This document shows positions 6,670 to 53,109 of a stretch of DNA of 64,000 nucleotides, one piece after another. The stretch is taken from the NCBI RefSeq assembly GCF_036365525.1, contig NC_090373.1, positions 40,835,590 to 40,899,589 of the forward strand. The letters are read 5' to 3'. The stretch's first letter is position 1. Each line of letters starts with the position of its first letter. The notes under the pieces were generated by a model. It saw nothing but the letters and a program-made list of their open reading frames with translations. It did no database searches and was not told the DNA's origin. The stretch comes from Heterodontus francisci. Its lineage: Eukaryota. The position numbers and the translations under genes were made by a program.

Positions 6670-6846
<177 letters not shown>

Positions 6847-17062: not shown

Positions 17063-17170
<108 letters not shown>

Positions 17171-21037: not shown

Positions 21038-21268
<231 letters not shown>

Positions 21269-43804: not shown

Positions 43805-44426
43805 AAAAATAAACCTTAGCGACGGAAGTCCCGCCCTTTGAGAACTGCTGGCTAATCAGAGGCCGGCAGCTCTTAAACTGAGCAGCGCCACCGCAGAGGC
43901 AGTGGCTGCTGCTTGTGGAGCACCTACCCGAGGCCTAGGAGCAGCGCTGGTCCCAGGCCACAGGTAGGTCAGGGTGGGAGGGGTCTCACGGGGCCGGGGT
44001 CATAGAGGACGGCAGTGTAGGGTGGTCAGCAGCAAGGGCAGGGGTTGGCTTTCAGCAGCCTACACCCCGCTTCCCGATGCCGGGTTGCTCATTCAGGCAC
44101 TGTGCCTTTGATTGAGGGACACCACCTTCCCCTGGAGCCAGCAAGCAACCCGCACGATTTTTCTTGCCATGCGTCCCGTGCGGCTACTGGCACACCTGCT
44201 GCTTGAATAATTGCAGGCAGTGGAGGGATGAGGCCCTTAATTGCCCATTTAAGGGCCTCAATTGGCAGCAGAGTGGGAAGGCCATTCACAGGCCTTCCCA
44301 CCCCAGACTTAATATCGGCCTGTGGTGGGAAGGGAATGGGGTCCCCACCCCCTTCATCATTCCACCTGATTATATGCTCTCCCTACCTCCAAACCCACCA
44401 TGGTGGAGAGCATAAAATTCCCCCCA
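43805..44426. mobile_element. MITE related to 24244-24927
   Basis: Shares the TTAAGGGCCTCAATTGG core in reverse orientation and ends AAAATTCCCCCC. Confidence 0.6.
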
Positions 44427-46704
44427 TGGCCCCAATGAAGAGGACTATATATTGACCATGTGGAGGAAGCCTGCTCTCTGCCTTGCTGCCTCTTCCAATT
44501 ACTTCCTGAATGGATAAAGCTCCTGTGAAGCACCTGGACATTTTACTTTGTTAAAGGTGCTATGTAAATGCAAGTTGTTGTTGTTGTCATTGATCCTAAG
44601 ACAATATGTATGAAACTACTTGTGGGTATTGCAATATTTACTAGGACTCAAAAAGCCTCAACGACTGAGCCAACCCTCAGTATATGTAAAATTTCTTTTT
44701 GAGAGGTTAATATAATACAGGGTTCTCTATTAAGGGTTACATTTTAGAGTTAGAAGGTTTCCTTTTCTTGTTGTTAAAGCACATCTAAATTGTGTATTAA
44801 CCTTAGATATTGCTTAATTCTGGTTCATATTTTTTGTTGTATAATAAATAATCCTTTTATTTTAAAGTTGTTGTTTATGCCAGGAATTTGTTCCTAGGAT
44901 AAAGAGCCCAAGAAGTAAAAAAAAAAATTGTGGGGAGATTAAAAAGCATTTTCTAAATTAAAGATTAACATCACATTGTGCCTTTTGTCCCTACAAAGTC
45001 TAGATTGTTACCAATTATTCCATTTCCTCCTGTGCATCCAACCACTGTTTCTTAGCAGAGGAAAAGTGGTTTCTAGTGAAGTCCACAGTGCTAATACAAC
45101 TGAACAGAATGATTTGGAAGATCTTTCAGTATTCTACTGTACTATCAAAAGCCAATGTGATTTACAAGTGGAACAGTTGATAATAGCCTAGGCAATGTGT
45201 ATGCTCCAGTAAGCTTATTCTGTGTTGAAAAATAGCTTTCTGAGACTATCGTTCCAGATCTATCTACTGAACAGTGCCAAGGTCAGCAGGGACTGTGTAC
45301 AAAAGTGAGCAGATGTATTGCAACAAATGCAGATAAACTAAAAATCCTTACTGGAATTAGAACGTTAGATATACTGTATTCGAGGCCAAGTTGATAGAAC
45401 CAGATGGCATCATGTGTTGAGAGTGCTTGACCCAGAAAGTAAATGGTAACGTTCCCAATGCATCAGGGGCAAAATGGGTGGTTTAACATCCAACATGGCA
45501 AGTGGGGTGTGTGTGCTCTTATGGAAGTGTACTTTGCAACATATTGGTAAAGACGGAAAAAGAAGTGTCTAGGACCCATGCCTGAAACAGCTGTTAGGCC
45601 CTTTGTGTATGCAAATAAAAGGGGGCTTATTGCTTCCTTGAGGAAAGCCTGCTGTGTTCAGGATAACATGGAGAAAAAGGACCACTGGAGTTTGCCACCA
45701 AAAAGGTAATTTAAAAAAAAACTTACCTGAATATGAATCCAGGATGCTTAGGAGTGTCCTTCCACTGCAGTGCAGCCACTGTTGCTGCCCATCGCTCGTT
45801 CCCGTCCCAATCACTCTCTCCTGATAGCTCCACCACACCCTCTGTCAACTGATGCCAACTCCCTTCGATCACCTCCCCCCATACCAAGAACTAACTGAAG
45901 GCCACTTCTGGTGACACAGTATGCCAAAATCAAAATCTTCTTCATCGGGTAACTGACTGGGGATGCCCAGCAGGTGTCTGCAGTTCACTGCAGTCTCATA
46001 TAAGCAAAGCCTGAGGCCCAATATTGATTGAGCCTTGGGCCTATCCCTTCAGGGAATATTTCCTGCACCCAGATCATTCCAGGAAAGCAATATTCAGTTT
46101 CTTTAAAGGCTGACCTCACCTTATATTGCAATGTTAGTTCATTTAAATAAAAAGTCAGACATCCCTGTAATGATTGCACCGAATAAGCAGAGCAAGTGGA
46201 AGATTTGCATACTGCAAAGAAGAGGCTGTTGGGCAAGTGGCCACAAATACAGCAAAACATTTTGTAGCCTTTAAAGTGACACAAAATGCATTTAAAACAA
46301 TGGCTATGGCAAAAATTTAGCCAGCCAGGAAATCAGAGATTGTTAAGCATGCTAAAGGCATGCTCTCCCTATTTTCTAATTTGTCAGTGCTCATTCTGCA
46401 GTTGATCATAAAATCTCTTGGTGGACATCCTTGGGAGAGTTGTACATTGGAGATCTTGGAGAGTTATGGGTTAATAATAAAACTTCTTTGTATCTTTGAG
46501 CAACAGGCTTTGTAATATAAACAGGATAGTTGCAGAGCGCCACAGAGGAAAGAATAGCTGGCTTGAAGAAAATATCTTTGAAGTACACAACTAAGACTTT
46601 TTATGTTCTGAAAGGATTAAAAAACAAATGCATGATGATGTCTTAGCTGTGACGTGTACTTTGATGTAGGTAAACGAAATAAAGCTCTTGCTCTCGCCCT
46701 GCAG

Positions 46705-47537
46705 AGACCTGGCAAGAGATCTAGCATAAGGTGGAATGCGGCTCAAGATTCCAAATCCCTAAAGTTGTGGACACGGCAGTGGAAATGGTTAGCAGCACCG
46801 ACGATGTCCCCCTCTCATCAATGTGCACAAAGAGGGCAATCGAAGATGCAAACATGGGCAGGGTATGTTGTCTAGCAGCTATCTATTCATTGATTTTCAT
46901 CACGTTAGTTGGAATATAATTCTCACAGGCCTGCATGGATAATAAAGTGCCTGACTGCAAACAGCATATGGAAATCCAGTCACATCACCAATGCCAATTG
47001 CTGTGAAAAGCCTTTTAATATCTAATTTCTCTTCCAGAAGGAGAAGCCGCAAGGACACAGGATGCCAGAATGAAACAGCTCAAATCCATCATGGACAAGC
47101 GGCTGATGGGAAAAGTGAAGGGTGCAGGGGGAGCCCATAAAATCCAGCCCCATGAGCCTGAATCATACGTTGCATCTATATTTATCTGTACAGTAATTTA
47201 TAGTCTATATTTTCAAAGCTTACATGCAGGATACTGATATGTCTCCAATTTGCCTTACAGGTGCAATTGCGTGACGGATCGAAATCCCTGAGTGCAAATC
47301 TATGCAGTAAGATGTCCCACAATTTATTTTTTTTAAATATGCCATGGATGTCCCTTTGCTACTACATTTTGAGAAGGTGTCAAATTGCTTAATTTGGTCT
47401 CTTTCCTCCTTTCAGCATGTTTCACCCATCACCTACGAACTGAGGAGGCTGTCGCAAAAGTGCTTGCAAGATTCAACGGCTACATAACTGAGAAAATCCA
47501 AGATCTCAATAAGAAGCCAAAAGTGCAAAGATTTTGA
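46705..47537 (+). pseudogene. Decayed intron-containing BEN-domain (BEND5-like) gene fragments
   Basis: Exon-like pieces with AG/GT borders: 46705-46862 (E)TWQEI*HKVECGSRFQIPKVV; 47261-47306 VQLRDG/IEIPECK (frameshifted); 47416-47537 (A)CFTHHLRTEEAVAKVLARFNGYITEKIQDLNKKPKVQRF*. The last resembles the recalled BEND5 C-terminus ECLYDR...VNKYICEKIMDINK. Confidence 0.6.
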
Positions 47538-47749
47538 ATTTGTGTAGACATGTATTTCAGCTTTGGCAATAACATTTGTTCTGCTTTACTCAAAATTGCA
47601 TTCTCAGAGTGCTTTTTCTGGCTGGAGATTTTGCTAGATTTGGTATATCATGCCCATACTTCACTGAATGAACACCGTGATACATCAGTACACTGAATGA
47701 ACCAAATGGGCAATATTAACATAATGGGGTTACATCATAGTTCAAACGG

Positions 47750-47950
47750 GATATTCAACTGGCCTAGTTTCTAGGACAGTCCAACTGGTAAATACCACAT
47801 GAACTGGTGGTTCAACTGATATATGCCCACAGCTCAACTGGTGAAAATCCCACATTCAACTGGTTACCAGCAGGCAGTCAAAACTGGAGAAGTGCATTTC
47901 GTTTCCAAGTTGAAAACTGGTTAGTGAACTGGTATGAGTAACTGGAAACA
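47750..47950 (+). repeat. Dispersed array of AACTGG motifs (subterminal-repeat-like)
   Basis: About nine exact AACTGG copies (often TCAACTGG) plus variants within ~200 bp, irregularly spaced. Confidence 0.7.
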
Positions 47951-48441
47951 CCTTCTGGATAGCATGGTTTTCAACACTTTAGACAGAGAACATGCCTATT
48001 GCAAGAACTTTGTCTAGAAATAGGCATCCCTAGGAGGCAGCATGATCAGTTGCAGACTGATAATAAAAGGGGGCTAAATTGGATAGCCTATGAAAATGGG
48101 CACGGGACTGTGGTGCATGATTAACACATGCCTATTGTTTGCAAGGCAGGTAGCAAACCAATTTTGTGCTCCGTGTCCATCTTCATGATTTTCAAGCCCA
48201 GCCAGTGTTGAACACGCGGTTCATTGGCTGGACGCTTCAGTAGGGTGCCATTATCATGACTGGCCTGCACCACTTAAAGCTTTCCTACCTGCTTAAAGCT
48301 AGTCTGCACCTCTTAAATGGGAAATGACTGCTGTTGGAGCAGGTACTGGGAGTTGTGCTTGAAGAGAATCTAACCTGGGAAAAAAAGAGCAATGGCATAA
48401 CATGGGAGACAACATGCTTGATGTCTTTCAGATGCTGCACT

Positions 48442-51400
48442 TCTTTTGGGCCTCCTTATCTCGAGAGACAATGGATACGCGCCTGGAGGTGGTCAGTGGT
48501 TTGTGAAGCAGCGCCTGGAGTGGCTATAAAGGCCAATTCTGGAGTGACAGGCTCTTCCACAGGTGCTGCAGAGAAATTTGTTTGTTGGGGCTGTTGCACA
48601 GTTGGCTCTCCCCTTGCGCCTCTGTCTTTTTTCCTGCCAACTACTAAGTCTCTTCGACTCGCCACAATTTAGCCCTGTCTTTATGGCTGCCCGCCAGCTC
48701 TGGCGAATGCTGGCAACTGACTCCCACGACTTGTGATCAATGTCACACGATTTCATGTCGCGTTTGCAGACGTCTTTATAACGGAGACATGGACGGCCGG
48801 TGGGTCTGATACCAGTGGCGAGCTCGCTGTACAATGTGTCTTTGGGGATCCTGCCATCTTCCATGCGGCTCACATGGCCAAGCCATCTCAAGCGCCGCTG
48901 ACTCAGTAGTGTGTATAAGCTGGGGATGTTGGCCGCTTCAAGGACTTCTGTGTTGGAGATATAGTCCTGCCACCTGATGCCAAGTATTCTCCGAAGGCAG
49001 CGAAGATGGAATGAATTGAGACGTCGCTCTTGGCTGGCATACGTTGTCCAGGCCTCGCTGCCGTAGAACAAGGTACTGAGGACACAGGCCTGATACACTC
49101 GGACTTTTGTGTTCCGTGTCAGTGCGCCATTTTCCCACACTCTCTTGGCCAGTCTGAACATAGCAGTGGAAGCCTTACCCATGCGCTTGTTGATTTCTGC
49201 ATCTAGAGACAGGTTACTGGTGATAGTTGAGCCTAGGTAGGTGAACTCTTGAACCACTTCCAGAGCGTGGTCGCCAATATTGATGGATGGAGCATTTCTG
49301 ACATCCTGCCCCATGATGTTCGTTTTCTTGAGGCTGATGGTTAGGCCAAATTCATTGCAGGCAGACGCAAACCTGTCGATGAGACTCTGCAGGCATTCTT
49401 CAGTGTGAGATGTTAAAGCAGCATCGTCAGCAAAGAGGAGTTCTCTGATGAGGACTTTCCGTACTTTGGACTTCGCTCTTAGACGGGCAAGGTTGAACAA
49501 CCTGCCCCCTGATCTTGTGTGGAGGAAAATTCCTTCTTCAGAGGATTTGAACGCATGTGAAAGCAGCAGGGAGAAGAAAATCCCAAAAAGTGTGGGTGCG
49601 AGAACACAGCCCTGTTTCACACCACTCAGGATAGGAAAGGGCTCTGATGAGGAGCCACCATGTTGAATTGTGCCTTTCATATTGTCATGGAATGAGGTGA
49701 TGATACTTAGTAGCTTTGGTGGACATCCGATCTTTTCTAGTAGTCTGAAGAGACCACGTCTGCTGACGAGGTCAAAGGCTTTGGTGAGATCAATGAAAGC
49801 AATGTAGAGGGGCATCTGTTGTTCACGGCATTTCTCCTGTATCTGACGAAGGGAGAACAGCATGTCAATAGTCGATCTCTCTGCACGAAAGCCACACTGT
49901 GCCTCAGGGTAGACGCGCTCGGCCAGCTTCTGGAGCCTGTTCAGAGCGACTCGAGCAAAGACTTTCCCCACTATGCTGAGCAGGGAGATTCCACGGTAGT
50001 TGTTGCAGTCACCGCGGTCACCTTTGTTTTTATAGAGGGTGATGATGTTGGCATCGCGCATGTCCTGGGGTACTGCTCCCTCGTCCCAGCACAGGCATAG
50101 CAGTTCATGTAGTGCTGAGAGTATAGCAGGCTTGGCACTCTTGATTATTTCAGGGGTAATGCTGTCCTTCCCAGGGGCTTTTCCGCTGGCTAGGGAATCA
50201 ATGGCATCACTGAGTTCCGATTTGGTTGGCTGTATGTCCAGCTCATCCATGACTGGTAGAGGCTGGGCTGCATTGAGGGCAGTCTCAGTGACAGCATTCT
50301 CCCTGGAGTACAGTTCTAGGTAGTGCTCAACCCAGCGGTCCATCTGTTTGCGTTGGTCAGTGATTATGTCCCCCGATTTAGATTTGAGGGGGGTGATCTT
50401 CTTGATGGTTGGCCCAAGAGCTCTCTTCATGCCATCATACATTCCTCTGATGTTTCCGGTGTCTGAGGCCAGCTGAATATGACTGCATAGGTGTTGCCAG
50501 TAGTCGTTTGCGCAACGCCTAGCTGTTCTTTGTGCAGTACTTCTGGCTGCTTTAAGTGCTGCGGATGTTAAATCGCTGGGGGCTTTCTTGTAGTTCAAAA
50601 GTGCAATGCGCTTAGCGGCTATGACAGGTTCCAGCTCTTCATTATGAGATTGAAACCAGTCTGCATTTCTCTTCGCACTTTTGCCGTAGGTGGTCAAAGC
50701 TGACTCATAGATGGCGTCTCTGATGTGGGCCCACTTGGTCTCAGCATCCCCTGTGGGAGTGTTTTGAAGGGCTGTTACAAGTGAATTTAGAAATTTTTGT
50801 AACAGCTGTGGGTGAGAAATTCTGCTCGTGTTGATGCGCGGGTGGCCCTTCTGCTTGGAATGATGCAACTTCTTTGGTCTGAGTCTAACCTTGCTGCACA
50901 CCAGGGAGTGGTCGGTGTCGCAGTCCGCACTGTGGAAGCTGCGTGTGATTTGAACACTGTTTAAGGCGGCTTGCCTTGTGACAATGAGGTCTAGCTGGTG
51001 CCAACGACGTGATCTTGGGTGCCTCCATGAAACCTGGTGACAGGGTTTAGTGTGAAAGAACGAGTTGGTGATGCAGAGGTTATGATAGGTACACAACTCA
51101 AGCAGTCTCTGCCCGTTCTCATTCATCCTTCCAACGCCATAGCGCCCAAGGCAGGAGGGCCATGAGTCATGGTCGGCCCCAACCCTGGCATTAAAGTCCC
51201 CCAGCAGGAATAGGTGTTCGGTGTTGGGGATGCTGCTAATGATGTTATGGAGTTGTTCATAGAACTGGTCTTTAGCTTCAGGTGCGGAACAGAGTGTTGG
51301 AGCATAGATGCTGAGTAGGTGTACTGGACCAGAGGTGGTGAGCAGTCGGATGGACAGTATGCGTTCCGAGCCATTTGAGGGAGGCTCTATCATGCTGAGC

Positions 51401-53109
51401 AAGGAGTTTCTGATGGCGAAGCCCACTCCATGCTGTCTTGGTTCTTCAGGATCCCTGCCCTGCCAGAAGAAGGTGTAGTCTTGCTCTGCTAGAGAGCCAC
51501 TCGCGGGGAGGCGAGTCTCCTGAAGTGCTGCAATGTCCACATTGAGTCTACTGAGCTCGTTGTTAATGATGGCGGTCTTCCGAGAATCGTTGATTTGTGT
51601 AAGGTCTTCCGACAGGCCAGGACACATAGTTCTGACGTTCCAGCTTGCAAAGCGAAGGGCTGGTACCTTCTTTCCTTTTTTCATGTTGTTTGGTGCGGTG
51701 TATCAGTCCACCTTTCGGGCAATGACCCTGAGCTCCAAGCACCCATTGAAGCAGGCAGACTGTGGCGGGACAGAACCTTATTGACCGGGGGCTGCCCGGT
51801 TTGAGGCGGGCGGTAGCTGTCCAGTGAGGTGCAATGACCTCTCCCACCGACAAAGGCAACCCGTGGCGCCCAGTTTCTACGCCAATTTATCTGGACTTAT
51901 AACCCGTAACTGCTGCCTTCCGTGTTGTTTCAGTCGCTGTGAGGCAACTATGGAGTGACCTCTCCATGGCGCATGCCTGGGCAAATTTATGGAGGTTGAG
52001 AGTTGCCCAGTCGTCAAAACCCCCCTCTCGGCCTTTCTGGTGGGGTCCAAAGGAGTGCAGGACACGACGTTTGGCACCAGTATGGCTGCAGGAACTGCCG
52101 GAAACATGCCAAAGGTGACACATGACCGCCTACGGGGTTCCGCTCCGGATTTTCTGTTAGGGTTTACTCCCTTAGCCTTGGTCTCTCCCGAGACGCCCAC
52201 AAGGCAGTGGGGTTGTTGGGGCCCCTACACAGGTGTAGGATGGTGCCGGTGGGAGGAGGGGATGCAAGGGGGAGGGGTAGAGGGAGGGGGTGGGGGGGGG
52301 GTGCAGGGGAAGGGGGTGCGGGGTGAAGATGGTGCGAGGGGGGGGCGGGCTGGGACGGGGTTGTGAGGGGGTGAGCTGAGAGGGTGGAGCAGGGAAGGGG
52401 ACGGGGGTGGGGGGGGTGGAAGGGGGGGGGGGAGGGGGGGTGGAATCTGGTGCAGGTAATAAGCCATTTCCTCAGTGCCCACCATCGACGTCCGGAAAGC
52501 TCATCCACGTCCTTCGGGAGGTGAAGCATCATTTGGCAGACTTAGAGGTGATTACATTTGTTAAGGGTTTTTTTTTTTTGCAGTGGTTTAAATAAAGGCA
52601 TGCAGCATTGCCGACAGTGCGCTGCAGATGCTCTCCGAGCCATCTCCCGCGGGCGCTTTGAAGTTGCGGCCGTGGGGGCCGTTCGTGGATGTTTTGGGTG
52701 TTCGGGGCACCTTTTCACAGGACTTCTCTCGGGTCCCGCAGCTCCTTCTTCACCTCAATGGACTTACCGCATGCCGTGGCTGCAGACACTCTGGACTGTG
52801 AAGACAGCAGGATCGGAGATTAAAGTATCGGCAGCTGTTCTCGTCAGTTTCATCCGGATCAATTTCATTGAGAAAACAAAGAGCAGGTGTGGCTGGGGGA
52901 GGGCAGTGGGCCCAGGTAACATACACTAAACTAACTGTTAACTTTTAGATAGGGCTAAAATGAACTGATTTAAAGAGCCAGGGGAATTTAAACAGTTTAA
53001 GAGGGCAGATTGGGGGAGAAAACGTTAGGGATGGGAGCAGATGGCCATGGATAGAGTTGAACAGCAAGGGAGCTTCCAGCCCAGGAGCCATCTTGAAAGC
53101 TATTATCAT
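48442..53109 (-). mobile_element. Full-length RTE-clade LINE (BovB/Expander-like)
   Basis: Perfect 10-bp TSD ATGCTGCACT (48432-48441, 53110-53119), a single long ORF, very short 3' UTR ending AAAAGA, and a ~1.4-kb 5' region. Confidence 0.9.
48493..51684 (-). CDS. RTE ORF: APE endonuclease, reverse transcriptase and C-terminal C2H2-like finger (1063 aa, intact)
   Basis: SWNVRTM, ALQETR, LGDFNARVG, TDHSLV, NYRGISLLS, FIDLTKAFD, GVKQGCVLAP, LLFADD, RRLRWLGHV, CSTC..HSRRC. No stops or frameshifts. Confidence 0.96.
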   Translation of the reverse strand: MKKGKKVPALRFASWNVRTMCPGLSEDLTQINDSRKTAIINNELSRLNVDIAALQETRLPASGSLAEQDYTFFWQGRDPEEPRQHGVGFAIRNSLLSMIEPPSNGSERILSIRLLTTSGPVHLLSIYAPTLCSAPEAKDQFYEQLHNIISSIPNTEHLFLLGDFNARVGADHDSWPSCLGRYGVGRMNENGQRLLELCTYHNLCITNSFFHTKPCHQVSWRHPRSRRWHQLDLIVTRQAALNSVQITRSFHSADCDTDHSLVCSKVRLRPKKLHHSKQKGHPRINTSRISHPQLLQKFLNSLVTALQNTPTGDAETKWAHIRDAIYESALTTYGKSAKRNADWFQSHNEELEPVIAAKRIALLNYKKAPSDLTSAALKAARSTAQRTARRCANDYWQHLCSHIQLASDTGNIRGMYDGMKRALGPTIKKITPLKSKSGDIITDQRKQMDRWVEHYLELYSRENAVTETALNAAQPLPVMDELDIQPTKSELSDAIDSLASGKAPGKDSITPEIIKSAKPAILSALHELLCLCWDEGAVPQDMRDANIITLYKNKGDRGDCNNYRGISLLSIVGKVFARVALNRLQKLAERVYPEAQCGFRAERSTIDMLFSLRQIQEKCREQQMPLYIAFIDLTKAFDLVSRRGLFRLLEKIGCPPKLLSIITSFHDNMKGTIQHGGSSSEPFPILSGVKQGCVLAPTLFGIFFSLLLSHAFKSSEEGIFLHTRSGGRLFNLARLRAKSKVRKVLIRELLFADDAALTSHTEECLQSLIDRFASACNEFGLTISLKKTNIMGQDVRNAPSINIGDHALEVVQEFTYLGSTITSNLSLDAEINKRMGKASTAMFRLAKRVWENGALTRNTKVRVYQACVLSTLFYGSEAWTTYASQERRLNSFHLRCLRRILGIRWQDYISNTEVLEAANIPSLYTLLSQRRLRWLGHVSRMEDGRIPKDTLYSELATGIRPTGRPCLRYKDVCKRDMKSCDIDHKSWESVASIRQSWRAAIKTGLNCGESKRLSSWQEKRQRRKGRANCATAPTNKFLCSTCGRACHSRIGLYSHSRRCFTNH

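Follow-up and report, generated by a model that had tools for sequence, protein, structure and literature searches.

We analyzed a 64,000-nucleotide (nt) stretch of Heterodontus francisci contig NC_090373.1 (the window, to whose positions all plain coordinates refer) and found on its plus strand, at 46684-47959, a piece of DNA that, taken as a whole, is very probably a decayed, non-autonomous remnant of an animal EnSpm/CACTA (CMC) cut-and-paste transposon in which a BEN gene was once a working part. Pieced together from overlapping copies, the autonomous form would be about 8 kb long and would comprise a left terminus and array, a transposase on the minus strand, a shared promoter region, a BEN gene on the plus strand, and a right array and terminus. 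This layout emerged from the comparison across copies and is firmly established, as are the class of the enzyme, the fold class of the BEN protein and past selection on its gene. An earlier note, made from the letters of the window, had proposed that an accessory gene of a CACTA/EnSpm-like transposon lies here, and the longer copies, with their EnSpm/CACTA transposase and inverted termini, bear this out.

The window copy and its dispersed family

Only the right part of the element is present in the window, and no match to the left end, the first BEN exon or the transposase was found anywhere in it. The features are as follows (X5 and X6 are sequencing runs described below):

46684..47959 (+): EnSpm/CACTA-type DNA transposon remnant, right part only; alignment with sister copies extends from 46684 to about 47958
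46705..46862 (+): BEN-gene exon 2, with a phase-1 acceptor as in BEND5 and a premature stop at 46722-46724
46863..47037 (+): GT..AG intron, 175 nt; joint carried by a single contig in X5 and another in X6
47038..47129 (+): 5' portion of exon 3 with a frameshift, truncated by a 1,393-nt deletion that took out the coiled-coil region
47130..47150 (+): terminal piece of a small inverted-repeat element that, in one subfamily, sits inside the BEN-gene intron
47261..47306 (+): BEN exon from its first base (phase-0 acceptor as in BEND5) to 47292, fused to former intron by a 225-nt deletion; new donor at 47307
47307..47415 (+): GT..AG intron, 109 nt, with a derived donor and the original acceptor; joint 47306-47416 in one X5 contig
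47416..47537 (+): last exon, encoding C-terminal BEN helices, with a 12-nt deletion; matches shark protein P0001
47745..47945 (+): right subterminal AACTGG array, conserved in sister copies
47940..47959 (-): right terminal inverted repeat, with one mismatch to the family terminus (outermost base); homology among copies stops here

The three AG/GT-bounded fragments of the earlier note were recovered on the plus strand at 46705-46862, 47261-47292 and 47416-47537, together with the stop, the frameshift at the exon start at 47038 and the deletions it had mentioned; the latter, compared with sister copy c20a, lie before 47130 (1,393 nt), 47293 (225 nt) and 47439 (12 nt). Its start at 46400 had to be moved to 46684; the truncated left edge of the element abuts another dispersed repeat, at 46422-46680. 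The exon 3 frame is intact in copies c11 and c24. Exon 2 of the window copy matches a sea-cucumber BEND5-like protein (P0011, tblastn E 0.002), while the last exon is 54% identical over 39 amino acids (E 2e-7 within the window) to P0001, a shark protein above the Pfam BEN cut-off. The last intron measures 148-168 nt in 10 of the 11 copies in which it could be measured and 531 nt, with an insertion, in the other, so that the 109-nt intron, which the note had taken as a mark of compact layout, is not the family form; it is a derived one, because the original donor was lost in the 225-nt deletion. The nested inverted-repeat element, probably a miniature inverted-repeat transposable element judging from its inverted ends, is present in copies c6, c11, c20a, c20b and c9, and absent from c4 according to the alignment; related sequence recurs at 44232-44285. 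Most copies have AATAAA at the position of 47569-47574, where the window copy carries a one-base change; this hexamer is likely the polyadenylation signal of the BEN gene. The AACTGG array seen in the earlier note is real: nine motifs fall within 47740-47960 (221 bases) versus 0.12 expected (Poisson P 1e-14), though Tandem Repeats Finder did not report it.

When positions 46300-48000 were compared with the 6.0-Gb genome (40 of 228 candidates were scored), at least 63 other matches of 69-88% identity were found, and 13 of 14 copies aligned with the window stop at a common right end. Walking left through longer copies led to the family left end, which opens with CCCAGAAGG, the right end's first nine bases in inverted form, followed five bases later by CCAGTT, as at the right end. 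This left terminus is perfectly preserved in 4 of 25 aligned loci and differs by one change in at least four more; outside it, the flanking sequences of the loci bear no relation to one another. The locus is thus multi-copy with inverted termini, and the single-copy alternative that the note had left standing failed. Arrays lie at both ends, with 109 AACTGG sites in 15 right ends and 133 in 13 left ends; in the left array the motif occurs in both orientations (69 forward and 64 reverse in the 13 copies). Both ends with BEN sequence between them were found at two loci, c27 and c20c, and copies differ from the consensus by 7-16% (25 copies). Two terminus-like sequences belong elsewhere. A 17/20 match to the right terminus at 45966 was considered as a left end and dropped, as no array follows it and it sits in another dispersed repeat (45885-46086). 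Moreover, a separate repeat family (loci L147, L148, L150-L153, L155 and L156) contains a 20-base near-copy of the right terminus, either by capture or by chance.

In several copies, a decayed reading frame lies behind the left array on the strand opposite to the BEN gene. Its decayed pieces match Pfam Transposase_21 (E 2e-5) and DUF4218 (E 1.3e-4), both scores being under the curated cut-offs. One piece finds 36 full-length proteins, most of them with PF02992; the best relative is a protein of the sea urchin Lytechinus pictus (P0042, 69% identity), and teleost proteins reach 44-55%. Residues 229-984 of P0042 align to copy c17 (E 3e-118), with no alignment to the window, and the D, D, DxxH and E motifs of the element transposase, which we take to be catalytic, line up with those of P0042. 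Transposase and BEN exons stand head-to-head on opposite strands in five loci (L101, L102, c33, c19a and c4t). At another locus (G000:C24:24083925-24084972), matches to the BEN last exon and to the transposase adjoin each other and share one orientation, which perhaps marks a rearranged or tandem copy.

Over 346 called positions, a majority transposase built from the copies shares 74% identity with the Lytechinus protein, a figure biased towards Lytechinus because the consensus was called on its coordinates (the unbiased figure is the 69% given above), and the two are sisters in a quick tree (Shimodaira-Hasegawa-like approximate likelihood-ratio support 96). The transposase at L124:1746-2108 (minus strand), compared with P0042, is closer to sea-urchin proteins than to teleost ones. 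Horizontal transfer of the transposase between shark and sea-urchin lineages is a possible lead from these sequences.

The sharp right end, the ragged left edges of the first copies and the CTGG end would suit a Helitron or another element without inverted termini. That reading, to which we give almost no credence, is refuted by the matching inverted left terminus and the Transposase_21 relatives: the linked enzyme is of DDE type, and there is no fixed target base beyond the right end.

The BEN gene and its relation to BEND5

The BEN domain was reportedly defined by Abhiman in 2008. A profile of the main BEN exon built from 10 copies finds 23 proteins (best E 3e-22); all 15 of those scanned match Pfam BEN (PF10523) at E<=0.1, 7 of them over the cut-off. 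The named relatives come from sharks, a sea cucumber, a crinoid and ticks, the closest being shark proteins, and are mostly annotated as BEND5 or BEND5-like. P0001 is 68% identical to the element consensus in the BEN region, and a profile of nine relatives retrieves Xenopus BEND5 (E 5e-47), which upholds the BEN/BEND5-like gene call of the earlier note. Exon 1 alone, used as a query, yielded no homologue among 40 candidates. The PDB sequence search gave nothing below E 0.8 with the exon profile and only Insv (E 0.083) with full proteins. The fold was examined on a predicted model of the shark relative P0030, standing in for the element's own protein. Its coiled coil and BEN domain are confident and the rest is low (mean predicted local distance difference test score 59.8); the model best matches Insv-BEN on DNA (E 4.5e-5), followed by Bsg25A (1.9e-4), and the first 14 among the matches listed are all BEN domains. 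The N-terminal part of the relative P0011 matches the BEND5 cluster (template modeling [TM] score 0.89). The protein encoded by the BEN gene consists of an N-terminal beta domain, a coiled coil and a C-terminal BEN domain.

Variants present in at least four copies comprise 54 nonsynonymous and 35 synonymous changes versus 308 and 86 among singletons (Fisher p 0.001; p 0.04 without CpG sites). In a simple site tally without a tree model, the ratio of nonsynonymous to synonymous rates (dN/dS) is 0.44 for variants shared by four or more copies versus 1.01 for private ones. Such a depletion would be expected if the gene was functional while the element moved, and, because of this purifying selection on shared variants, we regard the BEN gene as a working part of the element and not as passive cargo.

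Besides the transposase scores, several results weigh against reading the piece as an EnSpm/CACTA element with a working BEN gene. Single exons do not match Pfam BEN (0/3 window peptides and 0/6 sister exons), and the five matches listed by a Pfam BEN search of the genome all lie away from the element copies identified in this analysis. Among these copies there was none in which the two termini, the transposase and the BEN gene were all present. The inverted termini and transposase that the note had suggested looking for are present in sister copies, whereas no clean target-site duplication was found: one of the two two-ended copies shows AC/AT and the other has a decayed left end. No empty sites for c20c and c27 were found. 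The terminus pattern occurs 68 times versus 10 in the control, a count that overstates element ends and is unreliable because 11 of the 14 examined matches are not element ends; there was no young two-ended copy among these 14, and for one variant 8 of 10 matches lie inside another repeat.

The host BEND5 orthologue was found with Xenopus BEND5 on contig C5, where it extends over about 52 kb, 17 kb of which fall to the last intron. It is the one host BEND5 locus found, in a search whose stricter first pass may miss weaker loci and in which exon 1 matched only at E 0.18. No element ends were found in three examined pieces of this gene. As the earlier note had supposed, the splice positions and phases of the element gene match those of BEND5: all three compared with the C5 gene (exon-1 donor, BEN-exon acceptor and last intron) fall at the same codons, in phase 1 behind the AQIL motif, in phase 0 ahead of the BEN exon and in phase 1 ahead of the last exon. 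The two genes also have the same domain order. BEND5 and the element BEN gene are thereby shown to come from one intron-bearing ancestor.

In phylogenetic trees, the C5 gene groups with Xenopus BEND5 (P0032/P0033; support 100/99), and the element gene falls outside this clade. In a tree from which 8 of 20 rows were left out as short or long-branched, the element gene joins the 'BEND5-like' proteins of sharks (97/96). In the BEN region, it shares 40-53% identity with five echinoderm proteins versus 34-36% with BEND5 (36% with the C5 gene). The exon borders held in common with BEND5 might suggest an ordinary duplicated or processed BEND5 pseudogene beside an unrelated repeat. The element gene is no such pseudogene, because it forms a separate branch despite the common introns; the many dispersed copies with common ends, the inverted left terminus, the linked transposase, the low identity to the host gene and the size of the latter speak against it as well, and the reading, to which we assign only a negligible chance, is refuted.

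As to direction, we lean slightly towards BEND5 having been domesticated from the transposon, judging from sequence comparison: sea cucumber and tick have multiple copies of BEN-gene relatives, and the element gene is closer to echinoderm proteins than to BEND5. Two points weigh on the other side. A clade of BEND5 and the shark element is unrejected (approximately unbiased test, p-AU 0.29), so the tree, with its unresolved backbone, leaves the link to BEND5 undirected; and no invertebrate BEND5-like gene was linked to a transposase, as the metagenome scan gave four BEN-like loci (three on short animal-like contigs and one on a mostly bacterial contig), none of them with a transposase. The BEN-like match on the latter contig (L164:9963-10178) is weak and is probably due to chance or a chimeric contig. 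The search of viral contigs gave no match.

Gene capture is known for plant CACTA elements, and an EnSpm element may have captured an old cellular BEND5-type gene in Pack-CACTA style and later used it, BEND5 itself then not being transposon-derived. We consider this unlikely. It would explain the common introns equally well and is compatible with the unrejected clade; however, the position of the element gene outside the host and Xenopus BEND5 clade means that any capture was not recent, and both the echinoderm identities and the multi-copy relatives count against it.

Related to the element gene are the following models:

Shark BEND5-like models: Mustelus XP_078063628.1, Cetorhinus XP_078390907.1, Carcharodon XP_041036332.1, Stegostoma XP_059506939.1

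Those of Mustelus, Cetorhinus and Carcharodon are 68-69% identical to the element gene in the BEN region. All four models fall in the same group as the element gene and differ from it in having open frames conserved across two shark orders. Intact element-derived 'BEND5-like' proteins of these three sharks (P0001, P0030 and P0031) are 68-75% identical between the two orders and represent, on sequence grounds, a candidate second domestication. No clear orthologue of these models was found in the H. francisci genome.

Apparent splicing and neighbourhood of the window copy

Contigs from four runs were compared, namely X1 (DNA) and X5-X7 (RNA by our guess, none being recorded as RNA); X5, X7 and X1 are from one sample and X6 is from a second organism, with contig depths of 3-4. 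One X5 contig is identical to the window across the splice of the 175-nt intron, and another joins 47306 to 47416, thereby removing the 109-nt intron (depth 3.3; 36 letters on the short side). The 175-nt joint was also found in an X6 contig with 3 differences in 194 bases that reaches 16 bases into the left flank. Neither joint was present in the DNA run X1. Since the spliced form still has the stop and the frameshift, a transcript of the window copy would be at most a non-coding antisense RNA. The copy called dead in the earlier note is therefore unable to code, as stated, yet a rare, spliced transcript without coding capacity, running antisense to the CUB/Sushi host gene, appears to come from it.

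6670-6846 and 21038-21268 (-): CUB and Sushi exons of the host gene (Pfam)

A further exon of this gene, without a Pfam match, lies at 17063-17170 (-). Because its CUB and Sushi exons are on the minus strand, the element is antisense to a CSMD-type gene, as the earlier note had it, CSMD being a provisional name. The element probably lies inside an intron of this gene; the motif scan found no CUB/Sushi exons of the host gene right of 21.3 kb. Two other neighbours were recorded. An open frame of 1,069 amino acids at 48493-51702 (-) encodes an endonuclease and a reverse transcriptase and is presumably RTE-like; its copy at L103 is 99.7% identical over 1,560 bases, therefore the family of long interspersed nuclear elements to which it belongs is young. 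An exon-like stretch without a Pfam match, ending in a strong donor, lies at 45723-45890 (-).

Possible role of the BEN protein and its significance

TnpA binds the subterminal repeats of maize En/Spm. We propose that the BEN protein would likewise be a working element part that dimerises through its coiled coil, binds the AACTGG/CCAGTT repeats at both ends, helps the transposase to pair these ends and regulates the element promoters; by analogy with TnpA, this is the role we favour, with modest confidence. TnpA itself arises by splicing and does not belong to the BEN proteins, and the maize termini are CACTA, unlike those of the shark element. Maize En/Spm with its TnpA and TnpD resembles the shark element in its short terminus, subterminal repeats at both ends and two proteins, one of which binds DNA (PMC1636069). 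The animal CACTA/EnSpm elements called TRC (SmTRC1 of Schistosoma mansoni, and those of Aedes and Tribolium) also share CCC-starting termini, a Transposase_21 and repeats near the end (PMC1636069); the Aedes terminus begins CCCAG, CCC being the core of animal CACTA termini (PMC1636069). SmTRC1 makes its proteins by alternative splicing of one unit, whereas the shark element has a separate, divergent BEN gene on the other strand, and no clean counterpart of the 2-bp target-site duplication of TRC elements (PMC1636069) was found in the two two-ended copies.

The two-gene layout of Harbinger, with a transposase and a separate DNA-binding gene, is another parallel. Harbinger belongs to a different superfamily and uses a different DNA-binding domain, Myb/SANT, whose genes were later domesticated as transcription factors (cited in PMC11601247).

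Drosophila Insensitive (Insv) and Bsg25A (PDB 4ix7, 4x0g) are the best structural matches to the BEN domain; both are BEN-solo proteins of host genes, with 18-24% identity. Insv-BEN, the closest solved fold, binds CCAATTGG (PMC4281564), a core close to the array motif. Sites with at most one mismatch to this core occur at 4-5 per kb at the element ends versus 0.4 per kb in the window, about ten-fold. Four points argue against the comparison: the likeness is modest and was looked at after the motif had been seen; the commonest array 8-mer, TCAACTGG (65/255), is two mismatches away from the core, with CCAACTGG at 26/255; BEND5 binds the Insv site weakly (PMC4281564); and its motifs from chromatin immunoprecipitation differ from those of Insv (PMC9233729). 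The BEN protein might instead be a chromatin repressor or an anti-silencing factor acting on the element promoters, with the transposase binding the arrays. We regard this as possible but doubtful. Fly BEN-solo proteins are repressors and insulators (PMC4281564), TnpA too regulates promoter methylation (PMC1636069), and the N-terminal domain of P0011 is weakly like Tudor-containing proteins (TM 0.53-0.54, under the bar for naming); on the other side, dense arrays in two orientations beside a 9-bp terminus fit a second binding protein, and the array motif differs by one to two bases from the site bound by the closest solved BEN fold.

BEND5 regulates chromatin and acts in the early differentiation of germ cells (PMC9233729), and no explanation of its origin was found in the literature searched. 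Where PMC11601247 names the transposon-derived DNA-binding domains among its factors, BEN does not appear. Neither a BEN gene in an EnSpm/CACTA element nor a transposon origin of BEND5 was found described in the literature searched (with Repbase and subscription papers outside the search), including passages of PMC6004678, PMC11601247, PMC4574769 and PMC5094011.

The locus adds a vertebrate case, with introns common to the host BEND5, a selection test and shark relatives, and it hints that BEND5 may derive from such a transposon. A bolder proposal, which we put forward tentatively, is that BEND5 is a domesticated EnSpm/CACTA accessory gene, that BEN-solo proteins correspond in animals to TnpA, arrays like AACTGG having been their original binding sites, and that sharks domesticated the gene a second time, once the element had reached them horizontally from a sea-urchin-like donor. 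With a transposon family in which the BEND5 exon structure is kept, a transposon origin can be tested directly, and the terminal arrays offer a concrete candidate binding site. If true, these findings would identify the second protein in some animal EnSpm elements and would flag many 'BEND5-like' annotations as possible transposon genes.

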